Numbered from the stretch's first letter, positions 214-29,226 are shown. The stretch is 64,000 nt of DNA from a bacterium (GCA_030431975.1 JAUIHP010000024.1:5321-69320); one strand, 5' to 3'. The notes: generated by a model from the letters alone, not told the origin. Made by a program: numbers and translations.

Positions 214-1962
214 TTACGCGCCGCCGGTCATCAGCGCTTCCAGACGGTCACGGTAGACCGTCATGTCGTAGCGCTTCTTAGCTTCCTCGATTCGACGATC
301 CAACTCTTCATTGAGCCAGGCTTCGCGAAGGTTTTCGACGATTTGCTCGCGCGCATCGTCGAATGGAAGCCGCGACGAACGCACACGCTGATTGCACCGC
401 AGGATGGTGAAGCCGTGCTGAGTCCGAACGACCTCGGAGAGTTCTCCGGTCTCCATGTTGGCCGCCCGGTCGCGGAACGGAACCCAGGAGGGATCCGGCG
501 GCGCATCCCGAACGGGAGACAGACCCGTATCGGGGTAGTAGAGGACCCGATCCGAGGATTGCGCCTCGGTTTGGGCGAGTTCGTACCAGCGTATGGGATC
601 CGAGTTGCGGAGGATTTCGCGCACTTCGCGGGCACGCGTCTCCAGGTCGGGCGCAAACGTGAGGAGGCCGTAGGCGACGAGGTCCTCGGAAAGGTACCGC
701 GACGGGTTCTCCTGGTATTCCGCCTGCAACGCCGCTTCGTCGGGCTCGAACTGCGATGCGAGGTACCGGTCCCGGAACTCCGAGATCAGGTGCCGCTCCT
801 TTTGCACTCCATGGTTGGAGACAAAGGGCTCGATGTTCTGTACGCCCATCCGTTCTGCATCCATGATGAAGAGAAGCCTCTGGACGCGTTGCTCGATCTG
901 AAACTTGATCTTGTTGTCCACCCCAACCGTGACCCAGTAGTCGAGATCCACGTCGTTGAGACTCTCCATGAAATCCCGTGCCGAATAGGTCTTGCCATAC
1001 ATCTCGAAGATGGGCTTCCCGGCCTCTTCCTCCGCCAGCAACCAGGCCGGGGCCCGGAATGCCTGGTACTCGATCGTTTCCCCCGCAGACTTGGCCGCAT
1101 TGATCGAATCCCAGAAGGCCTGCATCGCGGCCTTGGGAATCTGGAAGTTCTCCGGGTGATACACAATGTTCGCTTCGGCCCTCAGACTTTCGACATAGGC
1201 CGTGCTGTAGGGGATGTAGTTGAGATCGTTGACGATGGTCTCGGCACGATCTCGGGAGCCCGGGTGCGCATCGTAGTCAAACGGCGTGTACTCGATCACG
1301 CGCAGGAAGAAGTTTCCTCGAGCCGTGGCCACCGGGCCGACCACCGTTCCCGGCGGTACGTCGTTGAGGAAGATAGCTCGGAGAAGAGCACGGGCCGCGT
1401 TTCCGAGCCCAAAGGTCATTTCTTCCAGGACCTGCCCCTGCGGCCCGGCCCCGGCCGAGAAGCGTGTCGCCACCTCGACGAACTCGCCTCCGTCGAACAT
1501 GGCCTGCCGGATAGCCTCGAAGTCGGACTGCCGCACTGTCGTTACAAGAACGCGCGCTTCGCGTTCGAGGAGATCAACTCCCTGCTGGCGCTCCTCCGGA
1601 CTCAGAGCGAAACGCTGACGCCGATGGCCGAGGTAGTCCTGCATGAGCGTCTTCTCATACAGAACGCGGTTGAGTCGTGCGCGCTTCACATCGGGCTCCG
1701 GAATCGCGTCCTCGGCCATTTGTAGAAGGACCTGCTTACTGGCCAGCAGCTCGGCAAAGTTGGCCCGTTGGTCCAGGGTCGCGTCCGCGAAGCTGGCTCC
1801 CTCGTTGACACGTTCATACTCCGCGGCCAGCTCCGACTCGGTCAGCTTCCAGTCCCCCACGGAAGCGACCACGTTCGGATCTTCGGCGGCGCAGGCGTAA
1901 AGAAGCCCGGCCGTCAGAATGAAAAGGGGCAGTAGGCGGCAGTGCCGTCGCGATATCGTCAC
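214..1962 (-). CDS. PpiC/parvulin-type peptidyl-prolyl isomerase (SurA/PrsA-like) lipoprotein
   Basis: Lipobox-like LLYAC; VVASVGDWKLTESEL N-terminal motif; two rotamase-like segments (FVEVATRFS...GPVATARGNFFLRV; GELSEVVRTQHGFTILR). Confidence 0.8.
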   Translation of the reverse strand: MTISRRHCRLLPLFILTAGLLYACAAEDPNVVASVGDWKLTESELAAEYERVNEGASFADATLDQRANFAELLASKQVLLQMAEDAIPEPDVKRARLNRVLYEKTLMQDYLGHRRQRFALSPEERQQGVDLLEREARVLVTTVRQSDFEAIRQAMFDGGEFVEVATRFSAGAGPQGQVLEEMTFGLGNAARALLRAIFLNDVPPGTVVGPVATARGNFFLRVIEYTPFDYDAHPGSRDRAETIVNDLNYIPYSTAYVESLRAEANIVYHPENFQIPKAAMQAFWDSINAAKSAGETIEYQAFRAPAWLLAEEEAGKPIFEMYGKTYSARDFMESLNDVDLDYWVTVGVDNKIKFQIEQRVQRLLFIMDAERMGVQNIEPFVSNHGVQKERHLISEFRDRYLASQFEPDEAALQAEYQENPSRYLSEDLVAYGLLTFAPDLETRAREVREILRNSDPIRWYELAQTEAQSSDRVLYYPDTGLSPVRDAPPDPSWVPFRDRAANMETGELSEVVRTQHGFTILRCNQRVRSSRLPFDDAREQIVENLREAWLNEELDRRIEEAKKRYDMTVYRDRLEALMTGGA

Positions 1963-2055
1963 GTCTCGAAACTCCTTGGAGGCCCGATGGTTTGGGCTAC
2001 CTGCTACTTTTCGGCTGACAAACCAACAACTCTAGTGGAGGGCCATTACGAGTCG

Positions 2056-3993
2056 CTAGAAAGAAGTTCGCAGCCGCATATGGACTCGTCCCGACCCGAG
2101 AGAACCCCCGAACGGGATCCCGTAATCCACGCTGACCGAGCGGTTCGTGGTCTCATTCGAGATCCCGACGCCCCAGCCGCCGTCCTCCCGTCGCTCCCCG
2201 CCCGCGCCCAGAGCCAGGTATGAGGCCCCGTCGACAAAGGCATAGGCACGCCCCTGGTCTCCGGCCAGGGCGACACCGGTCTCCAGCTGTCCGAGAACGA
2301 AACGCCGGGTAGCCAGGCTCTCCTCCCCGAAGCCACGCGGCCCGCGCAGTCCACCGATCCAGAGAGCCTCGGAAAGGGGCAAATCCCGGGCCACACCTCC
2401 GGAAAGACCTCCACCCCGCGCTTCCGTTCGCAGAACCAGAGTCGGTCCAAAGCGCCAGTAGCGCTCGTAGTTCGCGGTGACGCGGTCCAATCGCTCCCGT
2501 CGATCCGGCCCATCTGCCGGTTGGATCCGGCTTCGACCGGTTCGGAACGAAGCCTCGGCCCGGCTCCCGACCAGCCGACCCGGGCGGAGGGTTTCCCAGG
2601 CGGCCCCGAATACGGTCGAGACCCGTCGAACGACATCGGAGGGCTCCGCTCCCAGAACCGAACGTCGATACTCCAGCCCAATCGAAACCCTCAGATCGGT
2701 CCCGAGGTCTCCAAAGAGCCCACCCTCGAACCGGTCTAAGGTGAAAGTGCTATCTTCCACCTGTTGATGCACTTCCAACTTCGCGCCTACGGGAAGCCTG
2801 AACAGAATCGGCTCTTCGTAGGCCAGGTCGAGGCGGGAACGCTCCGCTTCCAGCCGTTCCCAACGAAATGCGAACTTTCGCCCGGTCCCGAAGAGGTTGC
2901 CCAGGGCCAGATCGAGGTGGCCGGAGATCTCCTCCCGTTCTCCGGAGTAGCCGAGAGCACCCTCGATCCGGTTGTGGGGCCGCTCCCGAACTCCGTAGTG
3001 GATCCGAACCTCCGCCGGACCGAGTGGCTCGAGCCGGGGCTCCTCCACCCTCTGAAAGAGCCCACTCCGCTCCAGACGCCGCTGGCGCCGAGCCAGGTCG
3101 GAGTTCCGGAAGGTCTCCCCCGCCTGATAGCGAATCCACCGGTGTAGGAATTCGATCTTCGTCGGACCGCGACCCGGGAACGCCACTTCTTCCACCGTCG
3201 TCCGGGGACCCGGGTCGACCCGAAGCCCGGCCCGGAGCCGGCCGTCCTCCACGGTCAGGGCCTCGACCTCGATGATGACGAAAGGATGGCCCGCCTCCGC
3301 CCAGGACTCGGCCCATTCCCAGACACGGGACTCGAACTCGTCGCGGTCGAACTCTCCCTGAGGAGGCACCGCCCGAGGCTCGGCCCCGCCGCGAACCCGG
3401 ACGGACAGCGAGTCCCAGACCGGGACGGCGCCCGCCTCGATCGTAAGAACCGCCGCCGGCATCGCCGGATCGTCGTGACGAAGGACAAGTCGGGCCTCGA
3501 GAAAACCTTCTTCCACGAGACGACGCCCCAAGGCTTCCAGACCCGCTCCGGGAATCGATCCCGCTTCGATCCAGGTCCGGCGAATCTCCGAGTCGGAGAT
3601 CGGACTGTCTCCCTCGATGCGCTCGAGGTCCCAGCGCGATTCACCGCTGCTTTCCGGGTCTCGTGACGGACTGTCGGCAACTTCGACGGCAGGCGCCTCG
3701 GCGCCTACAGCCCTGAAGCCCAGGATCCCGATGCCTGGAACCCCGATACCTGTGCCCCCAATGCATGCGATCCCAATGCCCGGCGTGACCAGGACGGCTG
3801 CGAGCGGCAACAGAAACGCTACGATCCAAACGAAGTCACGGGGTTCGCCTCCGTGCTCCAGCGCGCCTCCGAGCCTCCACCCACCTCGGCCCTGCAACAA
3901 AGGTGTCCGAACCGCCGACCGAGGACGCCCACCGCCCGGTCCCCGATCCCGTTGCGCCCTCGAAGCGCCATTCCGCCGCAACGCCGTCACCAT
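2056..3993 (-). CDS. BamA/TamA-family (Omp85) outer membrane protein with POTRA domains
   Basis: POTRA-like segments (GHPFVII; RLERSGLFQRV), NLFGTGRKF barrel start, GPRGF loop-6-like motif and C-terminal Phe (RLRTSF). Start reassigned to ATG at 3993, which overlaps the upstream stop (TGATG). Confidence 0.8.
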   Translation of the reverse strand: MVTALRRNGASRAQRDRGPGGGRPRSAVRTPLLQGRGGWRLGGALEHGGEPRDFVWIVAFLLPLAAVLVTPGIGIACIGGTGIGVPGIGILGFRAVGAEAPAVEVADSPSRDPESSGESRWDLERIEGDSPISDSEIRRTWIEAGSIPGAGLEALGRRLVEEGFLEARLVLRHDDPAMPAAVLTIEAGAVPVWDSLSVRVRGGAEPRAVPPQGEFDRDEFESRVWEWAESWAEAGHPFVIIEVEALTVEDGRLRAGLRVDPGPRTTVEEVAFPGRGPTKIEFLHRWIRYQAGETFRNSDLARRQRRLERSGLFQRVEEPRLEPLGPAEVRIHYGVRERPHNRIEGALGYSGEREEISGHLDLALGNLFGTGRKFAFRWERLEAERSRLDLAYEEPILFRLPVGAKLEVHQQVEDSTFTLDRFEGGLFGDLGTDLRVSIGLEYRRSVLGAEPSDVVRRVSTVFGAAWETLRPGRLVGSRAEASFRTGRSRIQPADGPDRRERLDRVTANYERYWRFGPTLVLRTEARGGGLSGGVARDLPLSEALWIGGLRGPRGFGEESLATRRFVLGQLETGVALAGDQGRAYAFVDGASYLALGAGGERREDGGWGVGISNETTNRSVSVDYGIPFGGSLGSGRVHMRLRTSF

Positions 3994-6900
3994 CAGAACG
4001 TCGCCTTCAACTCGAGCCGCGAGTCCGTCACGGCCTTCCCGCCGTCCGGGCGGCTCTCCCGGACGAAAAATGAGAGGTCGAGGGCTTCCCGTAACCGAAC
4101 CGTCGCCAGGATCCGGCTGTTCCAGCCCGGCTTCTCGAGCTCGCGCGAGGCACGCCCCGAGCCCCCACGCCGGCGCAGGGAGGTCCGCGCCGTCCGAACC
4201 TCGATTCGGCTGTGGGATCTGGGGCTCCAAATCAGTGACGGAGTTCCGACGACCACGTCGGCACGCTCCGGCGATTGCACCCGGGCCCGACGCCGGTACC
4301 GCAGCTCGAATTCCGCGGACAGATTCTTCTGAAGCCGGAACTTCTGCTCACTGACCAGGCCCCGCGTGTCCCAACCCGTTTGCGACTCGCCGGCGCCAAT
4401 CGAAGAAGACGAGGTCCGCCGGTCCCGTTCCAGTTCCCCTTCCAATTCGTGCGACCAACCCGACGCCGGCCGCGACCGAACCCGTAGGGTCCAGGAACGT
4501 GTCGACGTGCGCTCGGAAAAGCCCGACGCCGGTGAGTTCTCCACGCGACGCAAACTCCAACCAAGTCGGGGCGAGAACCAACGCGCGTCCCCGAACGCGG
4601 TCCAGTCCGCTCTTTGCAGAACGTCGACCCTTGGAAGTCGTTTCGCTCCCACAAGGACAGGAAGCATGCGCCCCCACAGATACGACGCGGTTCGACCGCT
4701 TTCCACCGAGACCGTCCAGTAGTGAACGACACGTGAACTCTGCCAAAGCTGTTTCCACAACGTGGCCTCGTCCGATTCGTCCTCACTCTCTCCGCCCCGA
4801 CGCGTTTGATCGAGTTCGGTCCGAAACGAAGCGTCAATTCGATTGCGTCGAACGGCGTCCCCCTGTTGGCGGGAAAAGATCTCGTAGTCGCCCACTCCCT
4901 GGTAGACACCCAGGGAGTCGTAGTGCCCCTGTCCTTCGCCTACGAACTCGAGCACACGGACGCGCTCACTCTCTTCCTGGGTCGAGAGTTCCCAACGTCC
5001 CTCCTGTGACCATGCGCCCCCGCCGTCACGAAAGATCCACCGGACTCTTCCGATCTCACTGACGGTCTCTCCCGGATCCTGGGAAGACAGATCGGTCTCA
5101 ACCTCCCGTCGGGTGTAGCTCGCTTCTACTGTTTTTCCCGGCCCGGCACGCCACTGGACGTCGCCCGCGTACGTGCGGCCCTCGTCGAAAAGGGTCTCTG
5201 CATTCCCGACAACCTGGTGCGTGCGCCGGCGCGTCCACTCCGTTCCGACCTTCCACAAACGAAAGCGTGACCCCGTCTCCAGTCGGCCTCCGACTTCGCG
5301 GTAGAAGGTTCCCGCCCTCGACGCTCCCTGCCCGCGCTCGCTTCGTTCGCCGGCGTATCCGATGCGGGAACCGACCCAGGATCCCAACCATTCCACCCGC
5401 GCGCGGTCGTTCTCACGCCGGCCTTGTCCATCTCGCCCGGGCAACAGCTGATCCTCGCTGTTCGTCCGAAGAAGCCGACCAGACAGACGCAACGCTCCCC
5501 GCCGCGTCTCTCCTTCGACGACAGCTCGACGGGCTTCGAAGTCCACCGTGTTTTCGAGTCGCCCCACTTCGGCGGAAACCCGGTGGACGCCTTGTCGCCA
5601 CGCCGCGCCCGCGACGACGCGGCGATCTCCCTGCGTCAGGCGCTCCGGGTCCAGGTTCCAATCCAGAGCAAAGAAGGACGGCTCCAGTCGGCCGAGCGCT
5701 CGAAACCGGTCGTCGACGTTTCGGAAATCGAGACGAAAGGTCAGACCGTCCTCCCCCTTTCCCGTCAAACGACTGGTGGCCCGGACTTCGACGGCCGTCC
5801 CGACGTTGTCCCCGTCGTCCCGGGAGGAGAGCGTGTTCCGATCCTGGTCGGACAGACCAAACTCGCCCTCCAGCGTGAGCGCGCGCCCCCACGAGGACTC
5901 TCCCTGCAGAGAAAGAATGGAATGTGATTGCGGTGCGACGAGGTCGCGGGCCGGAAGGAAGTCCCCCTCTCCCTCTCCCACGAACGTGTAGAACACGGTA
6001 TCGACCCGCGTGGACTCGACGTAGTCGCCATCCCCCACGTCGACCTCTTCGAAGCGAACGAGGAAGTCGCCACCCCCGGGACCGCGGTAGACGAAGAAAG
6101 GATTGAAGAGCGTATCGACGAAGACCTGCTCGTATTCGCCCGCTCCCTCGCCGACGAAACGAATCCCAGCGGCCAAAGTGTCCGCCTGATCGCCAACCGC
6201 GGCCAGCGCGCGCCGCTCTTCGTCGGTCAGGTCCAAGCCCAGCGGGTCGTCGGCGTCGTCTCCCTCGGTCAGCCACTCGACGGCGAACCCGCGCGACGTC
6301 GCGTCATCCGGTGAGGCCGACGCTTCCGCCTGTCCCCATCCTTCGGTGGAGACGCCCGCACGGTAGATGCGCGATCCGAAAGGTTGATCCGCAACCTGAT
6401 AGTCGACGGCGATGCGTGAGTAGGACGTGATCGGATGCCGACTCGTAAATGTGATCGAGCCGTCGCCGTAGTCGATGATGTAGTCCTCTGACTCACCGCG
6501 GGTCATGCGGCGACCATCCAGCCAGACCGCTTCGCTTCCGGCAACCAGCGGCTGGGAGATTCCGGTGTTGTCCCGCGAAAGTACGTACGGACCCTGCACA
6601 CCCTCCCGTCCTTCGAACTCGAGACTGGCGAACTCTCCCGGCGACGAAGCACCGGCGGCGCGGACGCGAAGACCACCCGCGGAAACCTCACCCTCGACCC
6701 CGGCCAGTTGGCGGTAGTAGTCGGCGAAGCGACTCTCCGGCAAACGAAGTTCGAAGTCGCCGAGACGCATGCGGGCACGCGGTCCCTCGACTTCGACCAG
6801 GACCCGGTCCAGATCCTGCAGTTCCGTGCTCGTGCCCTCGGGCTGAAGGGGGGTATCGCGATCGGTCAGAACCGCGCGAACGGAGACGTCCCGCCCGATA

Positions 6901-7706
6901 CGCCCGAAGACGGAAAGATCCAAAGATTGACGGAGTGAAAGATCTCGCTGGGACCCAACCTCCACCGAGAACGTCTTACTGCCCGCAATCTGGAGCCGGG
7001 CTTGATTGTCCGAGCCCCTGCGTGGATCTGCCGCACCGTCTTCTTCGTCCCGGAAGAAACGTCCGCCCGCACTGTCGGCCGGAGTCCATGCCTCATGCAA
7101 TCGGAAGAGCCGGGGAAACGACAACGGGAACGCACGGAAGGAAACCTCGATCCGGGTACTTGCGGGAAACGGCTTGAGAAGCCGGAATGTCCCGCGTCTT
7201 GGATCGAGCAGGAAGTCGACACCGCGTTCGAGGCCGCGTCGCTCCCCGGTACCCGGGTCCGACCACACCGCTGCGAACGACTCGGGATCGATCCACTCCC
7301 GCTCGAGTTCGAATCGGGTCGAGTCCGGATGTATCTCTAGAACGATTTTGACCTCGCTCGCGCTCCAGGATTCGGCCGGGCCAGACTCGGTCGGTCCCGA
7401 GTCTCCGAGTGCCCGGCCCGGCGTACCCAACCAGAGGACGGTCATCGTCAGCAGAACCCACGGAAGGACGGAAAACGACCCGAGCCCTGACAGTCCGGGC
7501 GGCTGATTCCCTGGAGCGACTACCCGCGACCTCGGGGTCCGGGTCCGGGTCCGGCTCCAGGTCCAGGTCCGGGTCCGGGTCCGGGTTCGGGTCCGGGTCC
7601 AGGTCCGGGTCCAGGTCCGGGTCCAGGTCCGAGTCCGGGTCCAAGCCGGCGTACCAACCCGCCGCCGCCGGTTCCGAGACCGTCTAGCGCCCGAGGACGG
7701 GAACAT
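3993..7706 (-). CDS. Large outer-membrane beta-barrel protein with SprA-like motifs
   Basis: 1237 aa with hydrophobic signal h-region; motif GSKTFSVEVG..LRQSLDLSVFGRIG..VRAVLTDRDTPLQPEG; two GxD[YF]x[IL]DxxxG motifs; amphipathic beta strands; terminal Phe (LKATF). GGAG lies 6 nt before ATG 7706, but the start is uncertain. Confidence 0.7.
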   Translation of the reverse strand: MFPSSGARRSRNRRRRVGTPAWTRTRTWTRTWTRTWTRTRTRTRTRTWTWSRTRTRTPRSRVVAPGNQPPGLSGLGSFSVLPWVLLTMTVLWLGTPGRALGDSGPTESGPAESWSASEVKIVLEIHPDSTRFELEREWIDPESFAAVWSDPGTGERRGLERGVDFLLDPRRGTFRLLKPFPASTRIEVSFRAFPLSFPRLFRLHEAWTPADSAGGRFFRDEEDGAADPRRGSDNQARLQIAGSKTFSVEVGSQRDLSLRQSLDLSVFGRIGRDVSVRAVLTDRDTPLQPEGTSTELQDLDRVLVEVEGPRARMRLGDFELRLPESRFADYYRQLAGVEGEVSAGGLRVRAAGASSPGEFASLEFEGREGVQGPYVLSRDNTGISQPLVAGSEAVWLDGRRMTRGESEDYIIDYGDGSITFTSRHPITSYSRIAVDYQVADQPFGSRIYRAGVSTEGWGQAEASASPDDATSRGFAVEWLTEGDDADDPLGLDLTDEERRALAAVGDQADTLAAGIRFVGEGAGEYEQVFVDTLFNPFFVYRGPGGGDFLVRFEEVDVGDGDYVESTRVDTVFYTFVGEGEGDFLPARDLVAPQSHSILSLQGESSWGRALTLEGEFGLSDQDRNTLSSRDDGDNVGTAVEVRATSRLTGKGEDGLTFRLDFRNVDDRFRALGRLEPSFFALDWNLDPERLTQGDRRVVAGAAWRQGVHRVSAEVGRLENTVDFEARRAVVEGETRRGALRLSGRLLRTNSEDQLLPGRDGQGRRENDRARVEWLGSWVGSRIGYAGERSERGQGASRAGTFYREVGGRLETGSRFRLWKVGTEWTRRRTHQVVGNAETLFDEGRTYAGDVQWRAGPGKTVEASYTRREVETDLSSQDPGETVSEIGRVRWIFRDGGGAWSQEGRWELSTQEESERVRVLEFVGEGQGHYDSLGVYQGVGDYEIFSRQQGDAVRRNRIDASFRTELDQTRRGGESEDESDEATLWKQLWQSSRVVHYWTVSVESGRTASYLWGRMLPVLVGAKRLPRVDVLQRADWTAFGDARWFSPRLGWSLRRVENSPASGFSERTSTRSWTLRVRSRPASGWSHELEGELERDRRTSSSSIGAGESQTGWDTRGLVSEQKFRLQKNLSAEFELRYRRRARVQSPERADVVVGTPSLIWSPRSHSRIEVRTARTSLRRRGGSGRASRELEKPGWNSRILATVRLREALDLSFFVRESRPDGGKAVTDSRLELKATF
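7535..7642. repeat. Hexamer tandem repeat (G/A)GGTCC x18
   Basis: Direct reading of gggtcc/aggtcc units. Encodes (TR/TW)n in the minus-strand ORF. Confidence 0.95.
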
Positions 7707-8790
7707 GTTCGGCTCCGTCCCACTGCATGCGGTCGACCCGCTCGGCGTTCGGCCGAGACAGGAAGAGTCGTCCCCGGTTGTCGGCCGTCATTCCCCCGAT
7801 CGGTTCGGGCTCGGCGAAGTCCTTTCGCCAGATCAGACGACCGCCGGGAGCAAACACCCGAAGCCAGTCGCCTTCGGCCGACGCCAGGACCACCTCTCCA
7901 TCGGGCAGCAGGGCCATATGAGCGGCCCGGTTCCCACGAGGCCGGGAGCCGGGCTCCTCGGCGGTCGCAGCCGACTTCTGTGCATCCTTGTTCGTGCTCG
8001 TGTTCGTGTTCGTGTCCGCAGGCTTCACCGGGGCGACCTCGTAGGACCAACTTGGCAACGCGTCTCCCTGGCGTTCGTATGGAAAGACACGGCGACTCAA
8101 TCCGTCGAGAACCACGACGTTGCCCGCACGTCCCAACGCCATCGTCACCGGCGATCGAAACAGGTTCGCAGCATCCACTCCATCGGTCAGCTCCGCGACG
8201 AAGCCGCCGTCCCGGTCGTAGCGAAAGAGGGCACGCCCGGCTCGGTCGAGAACCAGAAGCTCTCCCGTCTTGTCGACCAGGAAATCCACCGCGTCGAGCC
8301 CTTCCGTCTCTTCGCGGAGAAGGGAAATGGTCGAGCGGAGTCGGCCATCCAGTCCGAACCGGTAGAGTGTGGCGCGAGCGGCGTCGAGGGCAAAGAGGTC
8401 CGGCCCTCGGGTGCGAAGACTCCGGAGCGAAGCAAAGCGCCCGCCTCCTTGAGCGCCCGCGTCAAAGCGGGTCCAGCCCCCGTCATCGGAGTAACGGAAG
8501 ATTCGACCTTCGAAGAGATCGAGTAGGAAGAGCGTGCCGAACTCGTCCGTGGTCAGGGGACCCGGAACCCAGTCGGTGTCGAGCGCGAGAGGACTGAGCA
8601 TCTGAAAGCCGACGGTCGGCGACGTCTCAGGCCGGGACACGTCGGGTCGGGGCGCGTCAGACCCGGCCGACTCCAGCCTCGACACGTCGAGCCCGGACGC
8701 TTCAGGTCGCGACGCGCTCGCGGCGACCGAAGGACTTCCGAAAAGAAAGACCGCGACGAGGAGCCACCACGCCGACGCCCGGAAGCTCAG
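7684..8790 (-). CDS. NHL-repeat / beta-propeller exported protein
   Basis: NHL-like blades (DFLVDKTGELLVLDR; FRSPVTMALGRAGNVVVLD). The frame stays open upstream of the track start to a CTG at 8790 with GGAGG 5 nt upstream, adding a signal peptide (LSFRASAWWLLVAVFLFGSPSVAA). Confidence 0.72.
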   Translation of the reverse strand: MSFRASAWWLLVAVFLFGSPSVAASASRPEASGLDVSRLESAGSDAPRPDVSRPETSPTVGFQMLSPLALDTDWVPGPLTTDEFGTLFLLDLFEGRIFRYSDDGGWTRFDAGAQGGGRFASLRSLRTRGPDLFALDAARATLYRFGLDGRLRSTISLLREETEGLDAVDFLVDKTGELLVLDRAGRALFRYDRDGGFVAELTDGVDAANLFRSPVTMALGRAGNVVVLDGLSRRVFPYERQGDALPSWSYEVAPVKPADTNTNTSTNKDAQKSAATAEEPGSRPRGNRAAHMALLPDGEVVLASAEGDWLRVFAPGGRLIWRKDFAEPEPIGGMTADNRGRLFLSRPNAERVDRMQWDGAEHVPVLGR

Positions 8791-14223: not shown

Positions 14224-14269
14224 ACTTTGCGGTCCCCTCTCCCCTAGCGGGCCACGGTCCGAAAGAGGT

Positions 14270-15259
14270 CTAGAAGTTGTACGAGATCGAGAACTTGCTC
14301 ACGCGGTCAAGCGATCTCGCCTGCGGAACGCTGGCATAGTCCGCGGTAAACCGACCGATGCCGAAACCGGCGCCGAAGGTCGGGTCGCGAATGTCACCGT
14401 CTTTGTCGTGGATGTAGCCCGCCCGAAGGGCAAACGAATCCTGGTACCGGACCTCGGTTCCGCCGTTGAGAATCGGAGTCTCGTCGCTGTAGACGAGCGA
14501 CTTGTTGAAGTCACCGGCGAGGATGACGTTGAAGTCGCCGGAGGAAACGACGCGGGCGCCGAAGCCGATCTTGAGGTTCCGGCCGATGGGGTCGGCTTCG
14601 TCCTGATCGATGTAGGCGATGTCCGGCCCGAGATTCTGAACGTTGACGGCAAAGTTGATCGGGATGTTGCCCAACATGGGCGTGCCCTTGAAGCGATAGA
14701 GGAGAGCCAAGTCGGCGCCGAAGGTGTCACCGCTTCCCTGCTCGCCATTCTCCGTGGCCCAGCGAGGCGCCAGGTCGACGTAGACATACTTCAGGGTCAT
14801 TCCCGCAGCCAGTCCCGGCGCGAGCTCCGTACCGATGGAGATCTGCGGGGAGATCTCGTAACTCGTGAAGTTTCCGAGGCTGACTCCGTCTCCCGTCACG
14901 GCCTCGCTCTCTCCGTAACCGAGGTAGACGATGGAAGCGCCGATGCCTCCCCAACCGGGCAGGTGCATCGAGTAGCCGAGGAACTCGTAATAGACGTCGT
15001 CGGCCAGGTCCGGAACGAGCTTGGCGTGCATGAGGGAAAAGACGTGGTCACGTCGCCAGGCCAAAGCGGCCGCGTTCCACCAGTTTGCCGTCGCGTCCTC
15101 GGGCAGGGCGACGAAGGCGCGGCCCATTCCGTCCGCGCGGGCGCCGGGCGTGATGTTCAGGGACTGGGCCCCGGAGGTTGTTTGGGCTTGGGCGTCGGAA
15201 GCCCAAAGGGCAGCGGAACCTAGGAGGGCCGCCAGCCCTACCCATCGCAGTTGTCTCAT
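14270..15259 (-). CDS. porV: PorV/PorQ-family outer-membrane T9SS shuttle protein
   Basis: SLNITPGARADGMGRAFVA..DATANWWNAA PorV signature; LRAGY; terminal Phe (SISYNF). Start moved to ATG 15259 (MRQLRW signal peptide). Confidence 0.85.
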   Translation of the reverse strand: MRQLRWVGLAALLGSAALWASDAQAQTTSGAQSLNITPGARADGMGRAFVALPEDATANWWNAAALAWRRDHVFSLMHAKLVPDLADDVYYEFLGYSMHLPGWGGIGASIVYLGYGESEAVTGDGVSLGNFTSYEISPQISIGTELAPGLAAGMTLKYVYVDLAPRWATENGEQGSGDTFGADLALLYRFKGTPMLGNIPINFAVNVQNLGPDIAYIDQDEADPIGRNLKIGFGARVVSSGDFNVILAGDFNKSLVYSDETPILNGGTEVRYQDSFALRAGYIHDKDGDIRDPTFGAGFGIGRFTADYASVPQARSLDRVSKFSISYNF

Positions 15260-15439
15260 ATTCGGGTCGCACTCCTCTTCGAGGTTTAGGCGCGCAGGGT
15301 CATAGAACTCGCCCGGTCGTCCCCTGGCTGAGGGATTGTAACCCCACAAATCCCAAGGGTTCCGAAAACTTCTGATCCGAGTCCGTCAGGCGCCCTGCCC
15401 CGGCCAGCAGGACAAGGGTCCGGCCTTCGGATCGCATGG

Positions 15440-18019
15440 TCAAGGAGATTTCCCCCGGTCCCCTTCCAGGACGTCGGCCGAGTCCCGGTAGGCCCGAACG
15501 GTCGCCCGCATGGCTCCGTCGTCCGGATGGTTCCGGAGCCACGTCTCGAGGACGTCGACGGCGTCGTGCTTCCGGCCCATATCCTTCCAATAGAGCGAGA
15601 ACAAAGCCCGGTGGAGTTCAAAGTCCTCCGGGAAGCGTTGCAGGCCTTCGACATAGACGGCCTCCGCCCCGCCCCAGTCGGCCTGGAGCTCGTGGGCGAG
15701 ACCGAGGTATCCGTACAGACCCGGATCGTAGTTTCCGGCCGTGATCAGATCGGCGAAGACCTCTTCCATCTTCTCGTGATCGCCGATGCTTCGGTACATC
15801 AGTCCCAGCGTGTACTTGACGGCGGTCGCATGCGGAGAGATCTGTTCGGCCCGCTGGGCCATGTCCAGCCCGAGATCGGGGCGTCCACGCTGCAGAAGCT
15901 CGCGGGCGATGGTCAGGTGGGCCGCGGCATAGTTCTGGATGAGGCGCGTGGAGTTCGGGTCCTTGTAGACGGAGTCGTCATGCTGGCCATCCTCGGTCAG
16001 AATCCCGCGGTAGCGAAAGGTCTCGGTGAGAAGTTCCACGCTCCTGTCGATAGCGACCCGCGTGTCGTCTCCCTTCGGCTCGTCAAGGCGGTAGACCACG
16101 CCTTCATGGACGAGCCGGTTGTCGAGTCCCATCAGGTCCGGAACGGTCAGGGCGATGTAGATGGGCCGACGGTCGTACTCACGCTCGATGATGCGGGCCA
16201 CCGCCACGTCCTTGGCCAGAAGTTCGGCGTCCAGGGTGCGGACGTAGGGGCGGAGCCCCGTGTTGTGAAGGTAGGCCTGGAAGTTCTCGCGCGGAATGTG
16301 GCCCCGGTAGTGCCCTGCGGAGTATGCCGAAAACTGTGCGACGATTTCCGTGTACTCGTCGTCCCAGCCGATATCGACTTTGGGTTCGAGATCACGCAGT
16401 TGTCTGAGATACCAGTCGGTGTTGAGCAGGCTCAGATTGATGACACGGATGTCCTTCCGCAGCCCTTCCACTTCCTGCACGTACCAGAGCGGGAACGTAT
16501 CGTTGTCCCCGTTGGTGAAGATGAGCGCGTCGGGTTCCAGCGGCGCGAGCACGTTGTAGGCAAAGTCGGCCGCAACGAAGAACTCCGTTCGGTCATGGCT
16601 GAACCAACCGTCGGAGGCCCGGGCCACGGGAAGCCAGAGAAAGAGGACGGCCAGGACCGCGGTCACGGAGGTCCGGACAGCCCCACCGGCGCGTTTCAGA
16701 ACCGACCAGGCTTCCAACAGAAGATGCGAACAGCCGAGTCCGATCCAGATGGTGTAGAACTGGAACGAAGCGACGAAGAAGTAATCCCGGTCGCGCACCT
16801 CCGCCTCGCGGAAGTTCAGGTAAAAGACGAGGCCGATGCTCATCACGACATAGGTGATGAAGAGCAATGCAAAGTCCTTCCGACGGCGAATGGCCTGTCC
16901 GACCAGTCCGACCCATCCGAGGATGTAGGGAATGCCCCAGGCGAATCGTTTCGGTTCGAAACCTAGGTCGTACTGGTCCCGCGCATAGTCGAAGAAGTGC
17001 CTCGTGAACTGGATGTCGATCGGGGCTTTGCGGAAGGTGAATGGATTCGGCGGTTTGTACTGGTCGCGAATCAGCACTTTCCAAAGGTTGGCCAAGTTGC
17101 TCGGGTCCGCTTCGTTGATGGCCACGTCCGAGTTCGCGCGGATGAGCAGAAAGATGTGCGTCGAGATTCCGAGGACGGAAACGATCAGGCACCAGGTCAG
17201 AAGGCCGCGCATCCCGAACACGGGAAAGTTGACCTTTCCGCCCGAGACTTCCTGGGCAATGGTGATGATGCACAGAATGAGGACGAGCCCGAAGACTCCT
17301 GCGTAGATCGGACCCAGCGTCGGCAGCATCCCCGGATGGAGAACCACGACCGTCCCGGCGACGAGCAGCGCCCCCACGACCGACTCTCCGAAGAGGCGTC
17401 GGTCGATGAGAAGTGCGTAGAGAATGATCCCCGGTAGGACAAGGAACGTTCCGAGATGGATCCCCATCGACAGACAGATGATGTAGTAGAGCAGCAGGAA
17501 GAGACCCATGCGCCGACTGCGATCGCCCGGCCGCGCCCATCGTTGCACGAAGTAGAAGCACAGGATCATGATGAGGTTGGAAAGCGCGTAGACCTCCGCC
17601 TCGATCGCGTTGTCCCAGAAGGTGCGTCCGAAGGCGGTGAAGCCGGCCGCCACCACTCCCCCGACCATGCCGATCCAGATCGGGGCCTTGCTTTCACTGG
17701 AACGAACCCAGTTGCGAAAGAACTCGAGGACGACGAGGAAGGTGAAGGCCGCGGCCAGGGCCGAGGCCACCCCCGAGAGGAAGTTGACTCGCGTCGCCAC
17801 CTTTTCGAACGTCGGAATGAGAGAGAAGACTTTCCCGATGATGACGTAGAGCGGGGTTCCCGGTGAGTGCGGGATCCCGAGGATGTGGGAAGTCGCGATG
17901 AACTCCCCACTGTCCCAGAAGGGAACGTCGATGGTGACCGTGAACGCGTAGACGGTGGCCGTTGCCAGGAAGACGAGGACCGCTCCCCAAAACCCTACGC
18001 TCGTCCGCCAACCCGCCAT
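15440..18019 (-). CDS. DUF2723 / TMEM260-like GT-C glycosyltransferase with C-terminal TPRs
   Basis: FWDSGEFIATSHILGIPHSPGTPLY, AIEAEVYA, RDRDYFF and FTNGDNDTFPLWYVQEVEG motifs; many TM helices; TPR-like tail. Confidence 0.88.
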   Translation of the reverse strand: MAGWRTSVGFWGAVLVFLATATVYAFTVTIDVPFWDSGEFIATSHILGIPHSPGTPLYVIIGKVFSLIPTFEKVATRVNFLSGVASALAAAFTFLVVLEFFRNWVRSSESKAPIWIGMVGGVVAAGFTAFGRTFWDNAIEAEVYALSNLIMILCFYFVQRWARPGDRSRRMGLFLLLYYIICLSMGIHLGTFLVLPGIILYALLIDRRLFGESVVGALLVAGTVVVLHPGMLPTLGPIYAGVFGLVLILCIITIAQEVSGGKVNFPVFGMRGLLTWCLIVSVLGISTHIFLLIRANSDVAINEADPSNLANLWKVLIRDQYKPPNPFTFRKAPIDIQFTRHFFDYARDQYDLGFEPKRFAWGIPYILGWVGLVGQAIRRRKDFALLFITYVVMSIGLVFYLNFREAEVRDRDYFFVASFQFYTIWIGLGCSHLLLEAWSVLKRAGGAVRTSVTAVLAVLFLWLPVARASDGWFSHDRTEFFVAADFAYNVLAPLEPDALIFTNGDNDTFPLWYVQEVEGLRKDIRVINLSLLNTDWYLRQLRDLEPKVDIGWDDEYTEIVAQFSAYSAGHYRGHIPRENFQAYLHNTGLRPYVRTLDAELLAKDVAVARIIEREYDRRPIYIALTVPDLMGLDNRLVHEGVVYRLDEPKGDDTRVAIDRSVELLTETFRYRGILTEDGQHDDSVYKDPNSTRLIQNYAAAHLTIARELLQRGRPDLGLDMAQRAEQISPHATAVKYTLGLMYRSIGDHEKMEEVFADLITAGNYDPGLYGYLGLAHELQADWGGAEAVYVEGLQRFPEDFELHRALFSLYWKDMGRKHDAVDVLETWLRNHPDDGAMRATVRAYRDSADVLEGDRGKSP

Positions 18020-18070
18020 TCAGTCCCCTTCTTTGTCCTGCGCCGTCCTGCGCCGCGTCCCGGGCCTTGG

Positions 18071-21000
18071 CTATCTGGAAACGACCAGCCGACCGATGGT
18101 CGACTGCGACGCTCCCCCGGCCGACGTGGCCTCGAGTTTGTAGAAATAGACGCCGTTGGCCAGCCCGTCGCCGTCCTCATCGCGTCCGTCCCAGGGAATC
18201 CCCTCGTCGGCCAACTGGTTCGGCGTGAGGAAGCCCCCCTCCAACGTGCGGATCTTGCGACCCCGCAAAGTGAAGATCTGGATTTCTACCTCGGACGCCT
18301 CCCCAATGGAAGCATAGAAGCGCGTCGAGCGTTCCATCGGGTTGGGAAGGTTGAAGACCTGCGACAGCCCAAGCCCGAATTCTCCGGAACCGGAGAGGGC
18401 AAAGTTCAGCCGGACTCCCGATCGATTGTTGACGTTGTCGGAAGCCTCGAGAACCAACTCGTACCGTCCTTCGGGCAGATTCGAGGGCAACGGGTGTTCG
18501 AGGGTCGCCTCCCGAAAATCGTTTCCGAAGACAACAGAGTTGGAGATGTCCTCGGCGAAGATCGTCTGCCCGTCCTGCTCCAGCCGAAAGACGACGGAGC
18601 GCGAAGGCACGAGCCCGGTCACATTGATTCCGCTCGCATCCTGCAGAGACGCCGTGAAGACAGCCTCCGGCGAAACGGTAGTTCCGCCGGAGACGAAGCC
18701 CAGTTGCAGCTCCGGACCATCGACGTCATCGGACGGCGGCGGCGTAGTCTCGGGAACGGTCAGGCTCGGCAGGGAACCCGCGGCGTCCCGGGTTCCGTCG
18801 TCCGCATACACGTAGAGACGGGCCGCACCGCGATCGCCGGTTCGGAGCGCCGCCGGAGTGAAGAGGGACGCGTCAAATCGTCCGCCTTGGACCGTGGCCC
18901 GACCTCGATAAATGGTCGCACCTGGGAGTTGATAGTCGTTGCGAGTGTCGTTTGCCGTGGGTTCGCGCACGATCTCGGAGTCGAAGAGTTCGACCCAGGC
19001 CTCGCCGTCGAAGTCTTCCGCCACCTCGCCGTCGGCTCCGAAGATGCGTCCGGACACCTGAACCGGGGTTCCCCGTGGAAGAACACCGCCGAGAGGATCA
19101 CCGTCCAATGTCTTCAACTCGACATCCATCTCGTGCCCGGGGGCGACCAGAGCAATGGCGGGGTCACCGTGCATGGCATACCGCCGCTGGTTGAGCCCGG
19201 TGTTGTTGAGCAGAAGCTTCCCCACCGCCGCAGCTTCCCCCATCGGCCGGCTGTTGCTGGAAAGACCGTCGGGAAAGCACCGATCGAAGAAGAGTTTGTT
19301 CATGTCGGCGTTACCCTGGGCGAAAGCAACAGCCGACGCGGAAAAAACGACCGGAGATCCCCCGTTCTCGTAACGGATCAGAGCCTCGGCCAATCCCTCA
19401 CCGGACGAGTCGTACTTTCCGATGGAACAGGATGCCGTCAGGAACAGGAACATGCGGTCGGGGTTGTCGAGGCTGGCAACGGACGAGACGTCGAAGATCC
19501 GTTCATCCGAAACTTGCGTCTCTCCCCCATGGCCGGTGTAGTTGACGACCAAAGTGCCGGCGTTCATCGACCCCAACAGGTCGGCCGCCGACGCCGGCTT
19601 GTTCGTGAAGATGCACTCCGGACCGTACTCGTAGAGGTAGTTCTTTTTCAGGTCCATCGACGCTGGAAAATACTCCTCCAACTGCTCCGTTTGGCGCATG
19701 TGGAGAAAGCCCAGGTCGTCGGAGATGGTTCCCTGGCAAACGTCGTCGGCGACGAGCGTAATCCGGTTGCGCCACGGCCCGAAGTCCGACTGCTGCTCGT
19801 AGCGAATCGTCTTTTCAACCATGGTCCGCGCTTCCGCCGGCGTCCGGGCGACGAGGCGACCCAGAAACATGTCCATTCCAACTTCCCCGGGCCCATCGAG
19901 CAGCACCAGGTAGTCGTCCGAGGAAAACCTGGGGTCGTAGATCGTGCGAACGAAAATGTTGTCGAAGTAGCGGATGTAGGTCGGAACGAAGTCCGGCGAG
20001 TCTTCGACGACGAGACCCCGATGGTCCCGGTGCGCGTCTCCCATGAGCAGGGCGTAGGCCGGGCCGTCCTCCGGGTTCCCGCCGGTCCACTGGTCCCGAG
20101 CAAGCTCGAAGAAATTCCGAATGGCGTTCGGATCTTTGCGGCCGAAAGCGAACTCGTCGTAGACCTGCTGGACATCGACGACGGCCACGGAGGCAGTGGC
20201 CCGATCCGGGAAGTTCGAACGACGATACTCGGCCAGGTCTTCGGCTTCGTCGATGAAGTCCCCGTGGGTGAGGATGATCATCTGCACCGCGTCGGTTCTC
20301 TCTCGCAGATACCCGCCGACCGGCTCCGACTCGAGCGTCAGTTCGGGACTCCGCATGGCGTCGTTCTGGGACGCGACCAGGCGCGCGGGCTCGTCGCGCG
20401 AAACGTCGAAACGGAACTGCAGGGTCGACCCAACCGCGCTCCCCTCGATCAGGGACGGTCGTCTCGGGTCGGTGGCGTCCACGACCCGGACATCCCCCGG
20501 ATCGGAAAACTCCGCAACTTCGAAGGACTGCGGACCGACGACTCCACCGAGAAAGGTGGCGAGTCGACCGTCCCGGGCCCGGAGTTCACGTGTGTAGGTC
20601 ATCTCGATGAACGCCAGGTAGACGATGTCGAGGCGTGAGATGGTCGCGTCGGGATGCGCGCGGCCGATCAGCTGGAAGACCTGCTGGTCCCCCGGCACCA
20701 GCTGGGTTCCCATGGACTCGACGTCCTGACGCCTTCGCTCATCCCATTGATACCGGCCCAGGGTCTCGCCGTTGAGGACCAGCTCGAGGTCGTGGTCCGG
20801 GGGTGCCGGGACCTCGTCACTGTCCGGATCGTTGGCGCCCCAGAAGCGGGCAAAGACTTCCACGGGTTCCGTGGCCACCGGATCCGGAATGCTGACGGTC
20901 ACGTTTTGGAACTCGTCCCGGACCTCGGTCGTCACGAGTTCGCGCCACCAGAACATCTCCCAGTCCGCCGAGTCGGGCGCCGGATTTTCCCGCTGGCGCG

Positions 21001-22135
21001 CATCGAAAAACTCATTCCCTTCATGGTGAACGCGGTCTCGAACGGAGCGCACGAACGGGGCTTGGGCACCGGATCCATCGACGACGGCCATGCGCACAGG
21101 CTCGCCCTGGAACGTCCCTCCCCATGTCATCCAGTACGTCGACTCGTTGGCGGAAGGGTCACGATAGAAGTCTTCCAAGCCGGGCCGATCGACGCCCTTG
21201 TTCGAGAACCAGTCATCCGGTCCGTGACCGAGGAAGATCAGTCGGTCGGAAGGATCGAAGACTCCATCCTCGAGTCCTTCGGTCATGACGGCGATTTCTT
21301 CCATCCAGCCCGGCGCGTCGGCCAGAAAGGCATCATCCGGGATCACGAGTTGCGTCCCGGTGAAGACACGGATCGATGACGGATCGGAGATGTCCGACAG
21401 ATCGATCCCAATCCGCTCGAGATCGGTTCCAGCCACCGCGTACAGACCCTCGACCTGTGTGGTCATCCGAACCCAGGGCGCAGACGTGCTGGAAAAGTAA
21501 TCCCCGTCCCCGGCCAGGGCGGGTTGCGCCTCGGCGGGAACCCGGCGCCACCCCTTGCCGCTTTCGTAATTGAGAAAGGCCGCTTCGTAGAGTGACTCGT
21601 AGCCGTCTCTTCCGGACTCTGCACGAGCGCGGGAACGGGCGTCCGCTTCCGCGTCGATCCCGCCTTCGATGACGACGGTCGCCCTGACGGAAACCAGGGC
21701 CTCGATCTGACCACCGGTCGTGAGCCTCCACGGGGTCACGCCGAGCGGGACTCCAAACTGCTGACGAACGTAGGTCGGCTGGCCCGCGGAAACGACCGGC
21801 CCCTGCCAAGCGTCGGGAAGTCTCGGATCCGGAGGGAGAGTGAGGTCCGGACGCGGCTCCCACCGGGCGTCCCGAATCTGGATATCGGCGATGCCCCCGC
21901 CGGGTGGGACGGCGATCCAGGTCGTGGGCCGATTCACGGACGGGAACCGTCCCTCTGTCTCGAGCCCGTTCCCGAAGCCGGCCGAAGCCGCTTCCGCCCC
22001 GTCCCAGGCGACTTCGAGTGTCGAACCGGACTCGCCGACGACTCGGAACTCCGCCCGGACCGACGAGGATCCGAGACCGACGAGCACGAATGAAAGGAGT
22101 GTGAGGAAAGAAAAGAGGATGTGTTTGGATCTCAT
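18071..22135 (-). CDS. porU: T9SS sortase PorU (peptidase C25) with FlgD-like CTD
   Basis: VYDEFAFG..DPNAIRNF, LLMGDA, SSDDY, FLGRL, VADD; catalytic VNYTGHG and LTASC; MHGDPAI; CTD NLPNP...WDGRDEDG..LANGVYFYKL. Confidence 0.88.
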   Translation of the reverse strand: MRSKHILFSFLTLLSFVLVGLGSSSVRAEFRVVGESGSTLEVAWDGAEAASAGFGNGLETEGRFPSVNRPTTWIAVPPGGGIADIQIRDARWEPRPDLTLPPDPRLPDAWQGPVVSAGQPTYVRQQFGVPLGVTPWRLTTGGQIEALVSVRATVVIEGGIDAEADARSRARAESGRDGYESLYEAAFLNYESGKGWRRVPAEAQPALAGDGDYFSSTSAPWVRMTTQVEGLYAVAGTDLERIGIDLSDISDPSSIRVFTGTQLVIPDDAFLADAPGWMEEIAVMTEGLEDGVFDPSDRLIFLGHGPDDWFSNKGVDRPGLEDFYRDPSANESTYWMTWGGTFQGEPVRMAVVDGSGAQAPFVRSVRDRVHHEGNEFFDARQRENPAPDSADWEMFWWRELVTTEVRDEFQNVTVSIPDPVATEPVEVFARFWGANDPDSDEVPAPPDHDLELVLNGETLGRYQWDERRRQDVESMGTQLVPGDQQVFQLIGRAHPDATISRLDIVYLAFIEMTYTRELRARDGRLATFLGGVVGPQSFEVAEFSDPGDVRVVDATDPRRPSLIEGSAVGSTLQFRFDVSRDEPARLVASQNDAMRSPELTLESEPVGGYLRERTDAVQMIILTHGDFIDEAEDLAEYRRSNFPDRATASVAVVDVQQVYDEFAFGRKDPNAIRNFFELARDQWTGGNPEDGPAYALLMGDAHRDHRGLVVEDSPDFVPTYIRYFDNIFVRTIYDPRFSSDDYLVLLDGPGEVGMDMFLGRLVARTPAEARTMVEKTIRYEQQSDFGPWRNRITLVADDVCQGTISDDLGFLHMRQTEQLEEYFPASMDLKKNYLYEYGPECIFTNKPASAADLLGSMNAGTLVVNYTGHGGETQVSDERIFDVSSVASLDNPDRMFLFLTASCSIGKYDSSGEGLAEALIRYENGGSPVVFSASAVAFAQGNADMNKLFFDRCFPDGLSSNSRPMGEAAAVGKLLLNNTGLNQRRYAMHGDPAIALVAPGHEMDVELKTLDGDPLGGVLPRGTPVQVSGRIFGADGEVAEDFDGEAWVELFDSEIVREPTANDTRNDYQLPGATIYRGRATVQGGRFDASLFTPAALRTGDRGAARLYVYADDGTRDAAGSLPSLTVPETTPPPSDDVDGPELQLGFVSGGTTVSPEAVFTASLQDASGINVTGLVPSRSVVFRLEQDGQTIFAEDISNSVVFGNDFREATLEHPLPSNLPEGRYELVLEASDNVNNRSGVRLNFALSGSGEFGLGLSQVFNLPNPMERSTRFYASIGEASEVEIQIFTLRGRKIRTLEGGFLTPNQLADEGIPWDGRDEDGDGLANGVYFYKLEATSAGGASQSTIGRLVVSR

Positions 22136-22317
22136 GGATTCTCCCGCAGACGAACCTGGAGACGGGCGCCTATACTACTGGGCTGGTCCAGTGGGCTGGT
22201 CCAGGACACGGTTCTTCCGCAGGGCCTCCTTGCGAGGCTAGCAACGGGAAACCTCAACGTCAACGGAGCCCCGAACGGTTGTAACCCTTCGGATGGATAC
22301 AGGTTTCCAGCAATAGC

Positions 22318-29098: not shown

Positions 29099-29226
29099 AA
29101 CCGGGGATCGACCCGTTTTGTTCGACCCGTTTGTTCGAACCGCTACCCGACGGATTCTCTTACCACTCCCCCTATCCGACTGCTAGACTCCGCTCTAGCC
29201 AGCCGGGGACAGGAAGGAAGCGTTTG

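Follow-up and report, generated by a model that had tools for sequence, protein, structure and literature searches.

Type IX secretion systems (T9SS) have been worked out almost solely in Bacteroidota, where a single 36-strand outer membrane pore, SprA, is driven by the PorLM/PorKN machinery. As described in PMC10994853, the SprA barrel has 36 strands and a lateral opening, binds PorV and a peptidyl-prolyl isomerase (PPIase) subunit, and is extended by SprE and SkpA. The T9SS has been placed in the Fibrobacteres-Chlorobi-Bacteroidetes (FCB) group, and possible systems in Chlorobi, Fibrobacteres, and Ignavibacteriae are mentioned in the available portions of PMC11205867 and PMC5837995. Here we describe a T9SS locus outside the classical Bacteroidota. 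It lies in a 64,000-nucleotide stretch of bacterial DNA (GCA_030431975.1, JAUIHP010000024.1:5321-69320), hereafter the window, from whose first letter positions are counted. Homologues of its genes and related loci bear Candidatus Eisenbacteria names, and its PorU and PorV exceed family cut-offs, in agreement with an earlier, sequence-only reading that had inferred a T9SS module beyond Bacteroidota. That reading had seen a 22-kb envelope cluster of ten co-directional minus-strand open reading frames (ORFs) spanning positions 214-22135, which the ORF listing places identically. The observation is confirmed and its interpretation is partly supported; the locus is a variant of the known T9SS.

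The predicted operon joins PorU, PorV, and a tail-bearing M6 protease to a second unit comprising two related proteins (TMa and TMb), an NHL propeller, a half-size SprA-like giant β-barrel, and an Omp85 protein, and this order is kept phylum-wide. The gene-order comparison across relatives that had been suggested for this cluster was carried out on 20 kb around the barrel gene in 20 genomes from 15 families of the phylum, and the order is conserved in all of them. PorV, TMb, TMa, barrel, and Omp85 occur in identical order and on the same strand in 20/20 genomes, PorU in 19/20 (the 20th region is cut by a contig end), and M6 in 15/20. A further set of 16 genome_contigs loci, some from genomes also present in the first sample, has Omp85 directly after the barrel in 16/16 cases; 12 of the 16 show PorV-M6-TMb-TMa-...-barrel-Omp85-PPIase, the remainder being limited by contig ends or variant. 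The gap of about 1.2 kb ahead of the barrel holds an NHL-repeat ORF in 13/13 loci tested. The conserved core is PorU-PorV-(M6)-TMb-TMa-NHL-barrel-Omp85.

Two genes that had been counted as parts of the module, encoding a glycosyltransferase and a PPIase foldase, are instead lineage-specific additions. The glycosyltransferase is found in only 1/20 sampled genomes (family f1) and the PPIase downstream of Omp85 in 4/20 (families f1-f4). In the set of 16 loci, 11 extend 1 kb or more upstream of PorV, and 7 of these have the glycosyltransferase. Two relatives encode a Big_1/invasin-like Ig-domain protein upstream of PorV in place of the glycosyltransferase (L036:5-2041 and L037:2-2476), so the PorU-PorV interval seems to be a variable insertion site.

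Pfam and NCBIfam scans of the window proteins bear out the family labels given to them in the sequence-only reading, although the DUF5683 and NHL labels rest on sub-cut-off matches plus homologues. All coordinates of operon genes given below are on the minus strand. PorU, the type IX sortase (18071-22135; 1354 residues), has a signal peptide, a C25 peptidase domain (PF01364, 265.5 bits), and a C-terminal Ig-like tail with a FlgD_ig match at residues 1279-1339 that is below threshold (23.9 bits). It scores 539.7 bits against NF033707, for which the equivalog cut-off is 420. The PorV-family outer membrane shuttle (14270-15259) occupies an ORF open to 15349, its likely start being the Met ahead of the signal peptide at 15259. 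It reaches 194.5 bits against the family model NF033709 (cut-off 90) and 49 bits against PF19572 but falls short of the strict equivalog NF033710 (134.3 bits, cut-off 250), and it is one of eight PorV/PorQ-family paralogues above the family cut-off in the genome. The module had been called divergent; PorU clears its NCBIfam equivalog cut-off, and neither protein is especially divergent.

The M6-like metalloprotease (10750-14223; 1157 residues) matches Peptidase_M6 (PF05547) with 24.5 bits against a cut-off of 22 and ends in a type A C-terminal sorting domain, detected as a Por_Secre_tail match at residues 1074-1141 that lies just under both the Pfam (25 bits, cut-off 27) and the NCBIfam (21 bits, cut-off 23) thresholds. 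Its HExxH zinc motif reads HEFGH at residue 371, and HExxH...DLY is kept in 26/26 aligned M6 orthologues; judged by these residues, the operon protein looks catalytically intact. It does not belong to NF052323, the "inactivated M6-like" family, scoring 186.2 bits against a cut-off of 600. The retention of HExxH...DLY in all orthologues, while the nearest NCBIfam family is defined as inactivated, suggests that T9SS-linked M6 proteins have active and inactive branches.

The giant barrel (3993-7445) is encoded by an ORF open to 7706 and ends in ...ATF. In the 1237-residue product predicted from the full ORF, the first 87 residues form a 5' extension that comes from a (GGGTCC)18 repeat read as TRTRTW...; we take the protein to be 1,150 residues long because homologues align from about M88. 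The repeat (7535-7642), a perfect-period hexamer with 86% matches, is situated between the stop of the NHL gene and the likely start of the barrel, where it could affect spacing, regulation, or slippage. An AlphaFold2 (AF2) model built from a 48-sequence alignment (mean predicted local distance difference test [pLDDT] score 85.3, predicted template modeling score 0.76) is a closed transmembrane barrel of about 41 long strands with an N-terminal beta domain, a few insert domains, and a C-terminal Phe; an aromatic final residue is shared by the barrel and the Omp85. The barrel matches no Pfam or NCBIfam family and, together with five homologues, no Pfam SprA family even at E ≤ 10. A word-indexed search returned 68 relatives, and a profile search returned 5,307 clusters (at 50% identity) with E ≤ 0.001, 2,573 of them at E ≤ 1e-30; lengths among the best 150 range from about 700 to 1,265 residues. 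All NCBI and JGI names seen for these relatives read "hypothetical protein," while one UniRef entry is labelled "SprA N-terminal domain-containing." Named carriers belong to Eisenbacteria, Chloroherpetonaceae, Melioribacteraceae/Ignavibacteria, and Rhodothermales.

Structure comparisons, with mixed results, and partial sequence matches connect the barrel to SprA. The top four Foldseek matches in the PDB are F. johnsoniae SprA entries (E 4e-10 to 7e-8). VIA-align superposes the model on SprA with Z 14.7 and 12.7 over 705-712 residues, and SprA is the sole solved chain covering more than 60% of the model, the next longest alignments extending over 473 and 433 residues. When the 48-sequence barrel family was compared by hhalign with a 15-sequence SprA profile from the Eisenbacteria phylum, two segments matched significantly: barrel residues 146-310 with SprA 404-593 (154 columns, probability 85%, E 6.3e-6) and barrel 300-396 with SprA 892-978 (probability 97%, E 1.7e-11). 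The two segments cover the first strands of the barrel and an insert domain and are collinear in the two proteins. As single sequences, the barrel and the genome's own SprA align by BLASTP with E 8e-5 and 0.001, and hhalign matched the insert domain alone. The SprA family models (TIGR04189, PF14349) are unmatched by the barrel, while the genome's true SprA scores 495 bits, and searching the barrel profile against sequences of solved structures gave no matches at E ≤ 1. Because of the partial profile-profile matches and the fold coverage, we judge the barrel to be a distant, half-size SprA homologue outside the SprA family as its models define it.

The barrel does not replace SprA, as another contig encodes a canonical SprA and each of the two genes is near-universal across the phylum: the barrel occurs as a single copy in 116/121 genomes, and SprA in 118/121, 113 of them above cut-off (tallies that include genome G015). 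In the assembly studied (G000; 6.19 Mb in 59 contigs, 97% complete), the canonical SprA has 2,276 residues (C49:104761-113133) and scores 495 bits with TIGR04189 (cut-off 200). An LptF/LptG-like permease gene flanks it on one side, and the ORFs of the other flank begin like an IF-2-like gene. At least 150 proteins match the type A tail model TIGR04183 above its cut-off, with 150 of 300 candidates scored; to judge by these tails and the canonical SprA, the genome depends heavily on T9SS. The PorU of the window is the better of two full copies. The other (C5:142153-146160, 456 bits) sits among genes for tail-bearing cargo, namely polyhydroxybutyrate-depolymerase-like, LVIVD-repeat, and PETase-like proteins. 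The gene for a third, C25/PorU-like protein that has a sorting tail of its own (C10:274246-278550) neighbors those of a sigma-54 activator and a GGDEF protein.

The sequence-only reading had noted that no porK, porL, porM, or porN is visible in the window. This holds, and six models searched without a positive control detect none genome-wide either. GldL, GldM, GldN, GldM_1st, and GldM_4th (TIGR03513, TIGR03517, TIGR03523, PF12081, PF12080) have no match in the genome, again in a search with no positive control, and GldK yields only partial FGE-domain matches genome-wide, the best with 83 bits against a cut-off of 350. Likewise, GldM was found in 0/61 phylum genomes, with no positive control in the search. 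The control genomes lack a T9SS and hence provide no positive control, so these genes are to be regarded as not found rather than absent. Models of SprA, PorU, and PorV that were built from Bacteroidota do detect the phylum's proteins, and thus, indirectly, the sensitivity of the motor search is perhaps adequate. The PorP/SprF model produces just a 22-bit cross-match on a PorV paralogue genome-wide. That a complete canonical T9SS lies elsewhere, which would have counted against the sequence-only reading, holds in part: the genome also has SprA on C49, the second full PorU, and seven more PorV-family genes. The barrel, proposed there as a candidate translocon, does resemble SprA but occurs alongside the canonical one.

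TMb (9686-10753; 340-355 residues, with an uncertain start) has a signal-like N-terminus, a helical-hairpin core, and a C-terminal beta hairpin, and its neighbor TMa (8787-9689; 300 residues) is a paralogue (hhalign probability 98.9%, E 3.5e-17). The resemblance of TMb to DUF5683 (PF18935) amounts to 20.7 bits, with a cut-off of 26.7, across just 22 residues, and the Pfam scan shows no PF18935 match in TMa. Among 71 homologues, 4 carry PF18935, and two bear the UniRef name DUF5683. The two proteins are thus only weakly assignable by sequence, and "DUF5683-like" is used as a label only. In the AF2 model of TMb, the core is all-helical, with pLDDT above 94 across residues 135-310, and two long helices (160-196 and 263-308) precede the beta hairpin. 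The hydrophobic helix ends of TMa and TMb, which are paired in the TMb model, include conserved polar residues (E, N, S, D); overall, the hydrophobicity of both proteins is only moderate. We considered TMb as a PorM/GldM-like motor part and found no support for this: the top Foldseek matches are the weak ones to PorM 7cmg_B (E 0.087) and GldM 7sb2_A (E 0.22), none with E ≤ 0.001, and VIA-align gives its best Z, 7.8, on generic helical hairpins, with PorM/GldM outside the top 50. Neither Foldseek nor VIA-align returned a convincing match of the TMb model to any solved structure.

Between TMa and the barrel lies the NHL-type β-propeller with a signal peptide (7684-8790; 368 residues if CTG 8790 is the start). 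The window protein itself scores 12.8 bits with NHL (PF01436), below the cut-off of 20, but its positional orthologues pass PF01436 in 13/13 cases tested, and tblastn connects them with the window protein. Several of these orthologues have lipobox-like N-termini.

The Omp85/POTRA protein (2056-3993) is at most 645 residues long, its real start probably lying further downstream. It matches PF01103 with 37 bits (cut-off 24) and POTRA with 22 bits (cut-off 21.3). Its best NCBIfam matches are BamA and TamA models, although the BamA equivalog TIGR03303 remains far off (78 bits, cut-off 297). When the proteins of the genome are ranked by the BamA model, the true BamA on contig C29 has 494 bits and the operon Omp85 comes sixth with 68.7 bits; because of this difference in profile score, we consider it a private paralogue that is distinct from the housekeeping BamA. 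The adjacent PPIase (214-1962; 582 residues) is a parvulin-type (PPIC) lipoprotein with a lipobox-like LLYAC and a match to PF13145 (Rotamase_2) of 58 bits against 27, and it is an order-specific addition.

On balance, we think it probable that the locus is the Eisenbacteria form of a T9SS outer membrane sorting operon and that its barrel unit is linked to T9SS. Several observations weigh against this view, some of them concerning the relationship to SprA. Foldseek TM-scores between the barrel and SprA are low (0.19-0.28), and small porins outscore SprA in VIA-align Z (15.5-17.2), on 250-350 aligned residues. The significant profile match is confined to the N-terminal third of the barrel, as the alignment of the C-terminal part (barrel 947-1150, SprA 2080-2274) is non-significant (probability 2.3%, E 0.021). 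Moreover, what matches at 300-396 is an insert domain, which is likewise matched by the N-terminal domain of the barrel itself (45-110, probability 83%), a region that drew weak DUF2460 and phage tail-tube matches as well. Other observations concern the link to T9SS. Among 80 metagenome loci carrying a barrel of the Ignavibacteria/Chlorobi/Rhodothermales type, PorU/PorV lie upstream of it in 0/33 with at least 5 kb of upstream sequence. The barrel is mostly solitary there, with Omp85 next to it in 5 of the 36 loci that have at least 2 kb downstream, and its remaining neighbors are unrelated housekeeping genes. A single-copy, near-universal barrel is also as compatible with a general function in the envelope as with one in T9SS. 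As the barrel is mostly solitary outside the phylum, we infer its T9SS link from conservation within the phylum and from its SprA homology. In one metagenome locus (L127), NHL, barrel, and Omp85 occur together without PorU or PorV, and this triad thus appears to behave as a unit.

The NHL-barrel-Omp85 triad could be a general outer membrane transport or biogenesis device that handles, say, a glycan, a lipid, or a surface-layer component, is unrelated to T9SS, and adjoins porU-porV in this phylum only through a gathering of envelope genes. We consider this unlikely, though the very large size of the barrel family (5,307 clusters at E ≤ 0.001), its presence in Chloroherpetonaceae, Melioribacteraceae, Ignavibacteria, and Rhodothermales, usually alone among housekeeping genes, and its near-universal single-copy occurrence in the phylum all point that way. 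The housekeeping gene AccA adjoins PorU in 14/20 sampled genomes, so conserved adjacency need not mean shared function. However, SprA is the barrel's sole detectable sequence relative as well as the sole solved chain covering most of its model, and the order PorU-PorV-TMb-TMa-NHL-barrel-Omp85 survives across 15 families while flanking slots change (glycosyltransferase, Big_1, loss of M6). The named barrel-carrying lineages are also without exception members of the FCB group, where PMC11205867 and PMC5837995 report T9SS. A pairing of a large protein with an Omp85 also recalls TamB-TamA or two-partner secretion, in which the large protein would be a periplasm-spanning or secreted passenger and the Omp85 its transporter; a large beta-rich protein does adjoin an Omp85 with few POTRA domains, and one Omp85 orthologue has a weak ShlB match (E 1.1e-6, 28.8 bits against a cut-off of 22.7, 0 stretches). 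This explanation is scarcely credible, and both versions were rejected on the AF2 model, a closed transmembrane barrel of about 41 strands with pLDDT 85 and a C-terminal Phe whose structural matches are all barrels; in addition, no DUF490/TamB or two-partner-secretion-domain family was matched in Pfam or NCBIfam.

The results of the motor search bear on a further possibility, that the half-size barrel is the working translocon of a motor-less, simplified T9SS and that the operon gives some or all of the tail-bearing cargo an alternative export route, alongside or ahead of SprA. The failure to match GldL, GldM, GldN, or a full GldK in a 97% complete genome and the 0/61 result for GldM are consistent with it, and the success of the Bacteroidota models for SprA, PorU, and PorV indicates that divergence in this phylum is not beyond reach in general. 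The polar residues kept in the hydrophobic helix ends of TMa and TMb would also agree with it. We nevertheless hold it to be quite improbable: the motor searches have no positive control, a normal translocon exists in the canonical SprA kept in 118/121 genomes, the TMb model matches no motor protein, and TMa and TMb are only moderately hydrophobic. Distinctly doubtful, too, is that the Eisenbacteria T9SS operates without PorK, PorL, PorM, and PorN and that the phylum-wide operon supplies the missing machinery; the barrel of about 1,150 residues would then be a minimal, possibly ancestral, pore working with PorV.

If the locus is a T9SS sorting operon, as we favor, PorV-bound, tail-bearing cargo would cross the outer membrane through the canonical SprA encoded elsewhere, and the small barrel may be a second conduit or a docking platform for PorV and PorU, serving either cargo hand-over and processing or the export of a surface anchor. 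By analogy with BamA and BamB, the Omp85 and the propeller may insert or hold the barrel, with a SurA-like PPIase possibly joining them in one order of the phylum. The M6 protease would itself be cargo and may process other cargo at the surface. In family f1, the inserted glycosyltransferase may glycosylate cargo or an anchor in the periplasm. This TMEM260/DUF2723-type GT-C enzyme (15440-18019; 859 residues), a family-specific insertion, has C-terminal TPR repeats, matches PF11028 with 157.4 bits (cut-off 24.2) in addition to TPR families, and contains 11 hydrophobic segments, as a GT-C enzyme would have.

Upstream, the ten-gene run ends at a divergent, plus-strand gene of the GT9 heptosyltransferase family (22318-23553); its downstream limit is a convergent LigA immediately below the window start. 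A minus-strand ORF at 22132-23529 resembles a non-coding frame. The GT9 gene and a minus-strand gene for a UbiA-family prenyltransferase (23571-24476) sit between AccA and PorU and, with the GT-C gene, resemble a lineage-specific insertion of glycan-donor/transferase genes around porU. An exact 13-bp tandem duplication (TGGGCTGGTCCAG x2) is present at 22179-22204, in the intergenic region between the divergent PorU and GT9 genes. A promoter/terminator scan found no promoter-like site, and its 23 terminator sites, against 17.8 ± 4.4 expected, are all within coding sequence.

Four stop/start overlaps had been read as coupling neighboring genes, and all four strings are present, but they differ in how well they are supported as starts. 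GTGA 9689 is well supported, being the first start of the TMa ORF and overlapping the TMb stop; at this junction, 10 of 14 orthologous loci with both ORFs delimited show an overlap or a gap of at most 3 bp. CTGA 8790 would require a CTG start, which is plausible, since a start at the first canonical codon (8685) would leave out the propeller's signal peptide. ATGA 10753 is doubtful, since the gene call on record for the contig has 340 residues for TMb and not 355, as is TGATG 3993, since clean Omp85 orthologues have 567-612 residues, compared with 645 when counted from 3993.

Elsewhere in the window, positions 46016-46645 and 58431-59942 hold two further likely T9SS cargo genes with C-terminal FlgD_ig-type tails, the latter encoding a glucose/sorbosone dehydrogenase-family protein. 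A plus-strand ORF of 1,062 codons at 29131-32319 has coding-like GC content at third codon positions and no Pfam family at E ≤ 1e-6.

What is new here is that, throughout a sister phylum, PorU and PorV share a single predicted operon with a dedicated Omp85 and a second SprA-like barrel of half size, and that no motor genes were detectable in the phylum in searches made without a positive control. Also new is a very large barrel family, with thousands of clusters at 50% identity, that is without any annotation. If the barrel works with PorV and PorU, it would offer a much smaller object for studying giant-barrel assembly and cargo hand-over at the cell surface, as well as a functional context for an orphan Omp85 subfamily. 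If it is unconnected with them, it would still be a widespread, uncharacterized giant outer membrane protein of the FCB group. In the published literature, supplements aside, we found nothing on a short SprA paralogue, on T9SS in Eisenbacteria, or on a connection of DUF2723 or DUF5683 with T9SS, and nothing relevant on T9SS in candidate phyla among the papers listed; the literature found on DUF5683 contains nothing on its function, and a PorU-PorV operon with a half-size SprA-like barrel and an Omp85 was not found in it.

Among described families, the NCBIfam set PorU2 (NF052324), PorV2 (NF052325), and NF052323 shares with our locus the theme of a PorU, a PorV, and an M6-like protein with a sorting tail, and the window proteins match these models with 118.6, 51.4, and 186.2 bits, respectively. 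These scores are far under the cut-offs of 450, 325, and 600, and the PorU of the window is of the canonical type. Furthermore, the M6-like family of that set is named as inactivated, whereas the M6 family of the window keeps HExxH in 26/26 orthologues. The Bacteroidota β-barrel assembly machinery gives no match to the window module in the form described in the accessible portions of PMC12611786. An analogy is provided by BamA-BamB(-SurA) and TamA, since an Omp85 with POTRA, a propeller (lipo)protein, and a parvulin-type PPIase lipoprotein appear together in one predicted operon here. The Omp85 here is not the housekeeping BamA, however, and the propeller is of the NHL type, with about 330 residues, and not a PQQ-like BamB.

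The PorU-PorV-PorQ-PorZ complex of P. gingivalis resembles the locus in several respects. PorU is over its equivalog cut-off and PorV over its family cut-off, and their genes are near neighbors, as porU and porV are in Bacteroidota too. The locus also encodes a protein with a sorting tail and a propeller protein; PorZ combines these features, being a tail-bearing propeller protein. In contrast, we identified no PorZ or PorQ equivalog here, the window PorV scoring 51.8 bits with PorQ against a cut-off of 220. The partner with the tail in our locus is an M6 protease whose HExxH is intact; the propeller lacks a sorting tail, and the giant barrel and the Omp85 are not part of the known complex.

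The barrel itself compares most directly with SprA/Sov (PDB 6H3I, 6H3J, 8GL6, 8GL8; TIGR04189, PF14349). Both are giant single-chain β-barrels, with 36 strands in SprA and about 41 long ones in the model here. The gene context in the window includes PorV and a PPIase, and SprA binds PorV and a PPIase subunit according to PMC10994853; the window PPIase is of the parvulin type. At 1,150 residues, the barrel is half as long as SprA (about 2,300) and lacks the bulk of the cap. It also differs in matching no SprA model, in coexisting with a canonical SprA, and in being paired with a private Omp85 and an NHL propeller.

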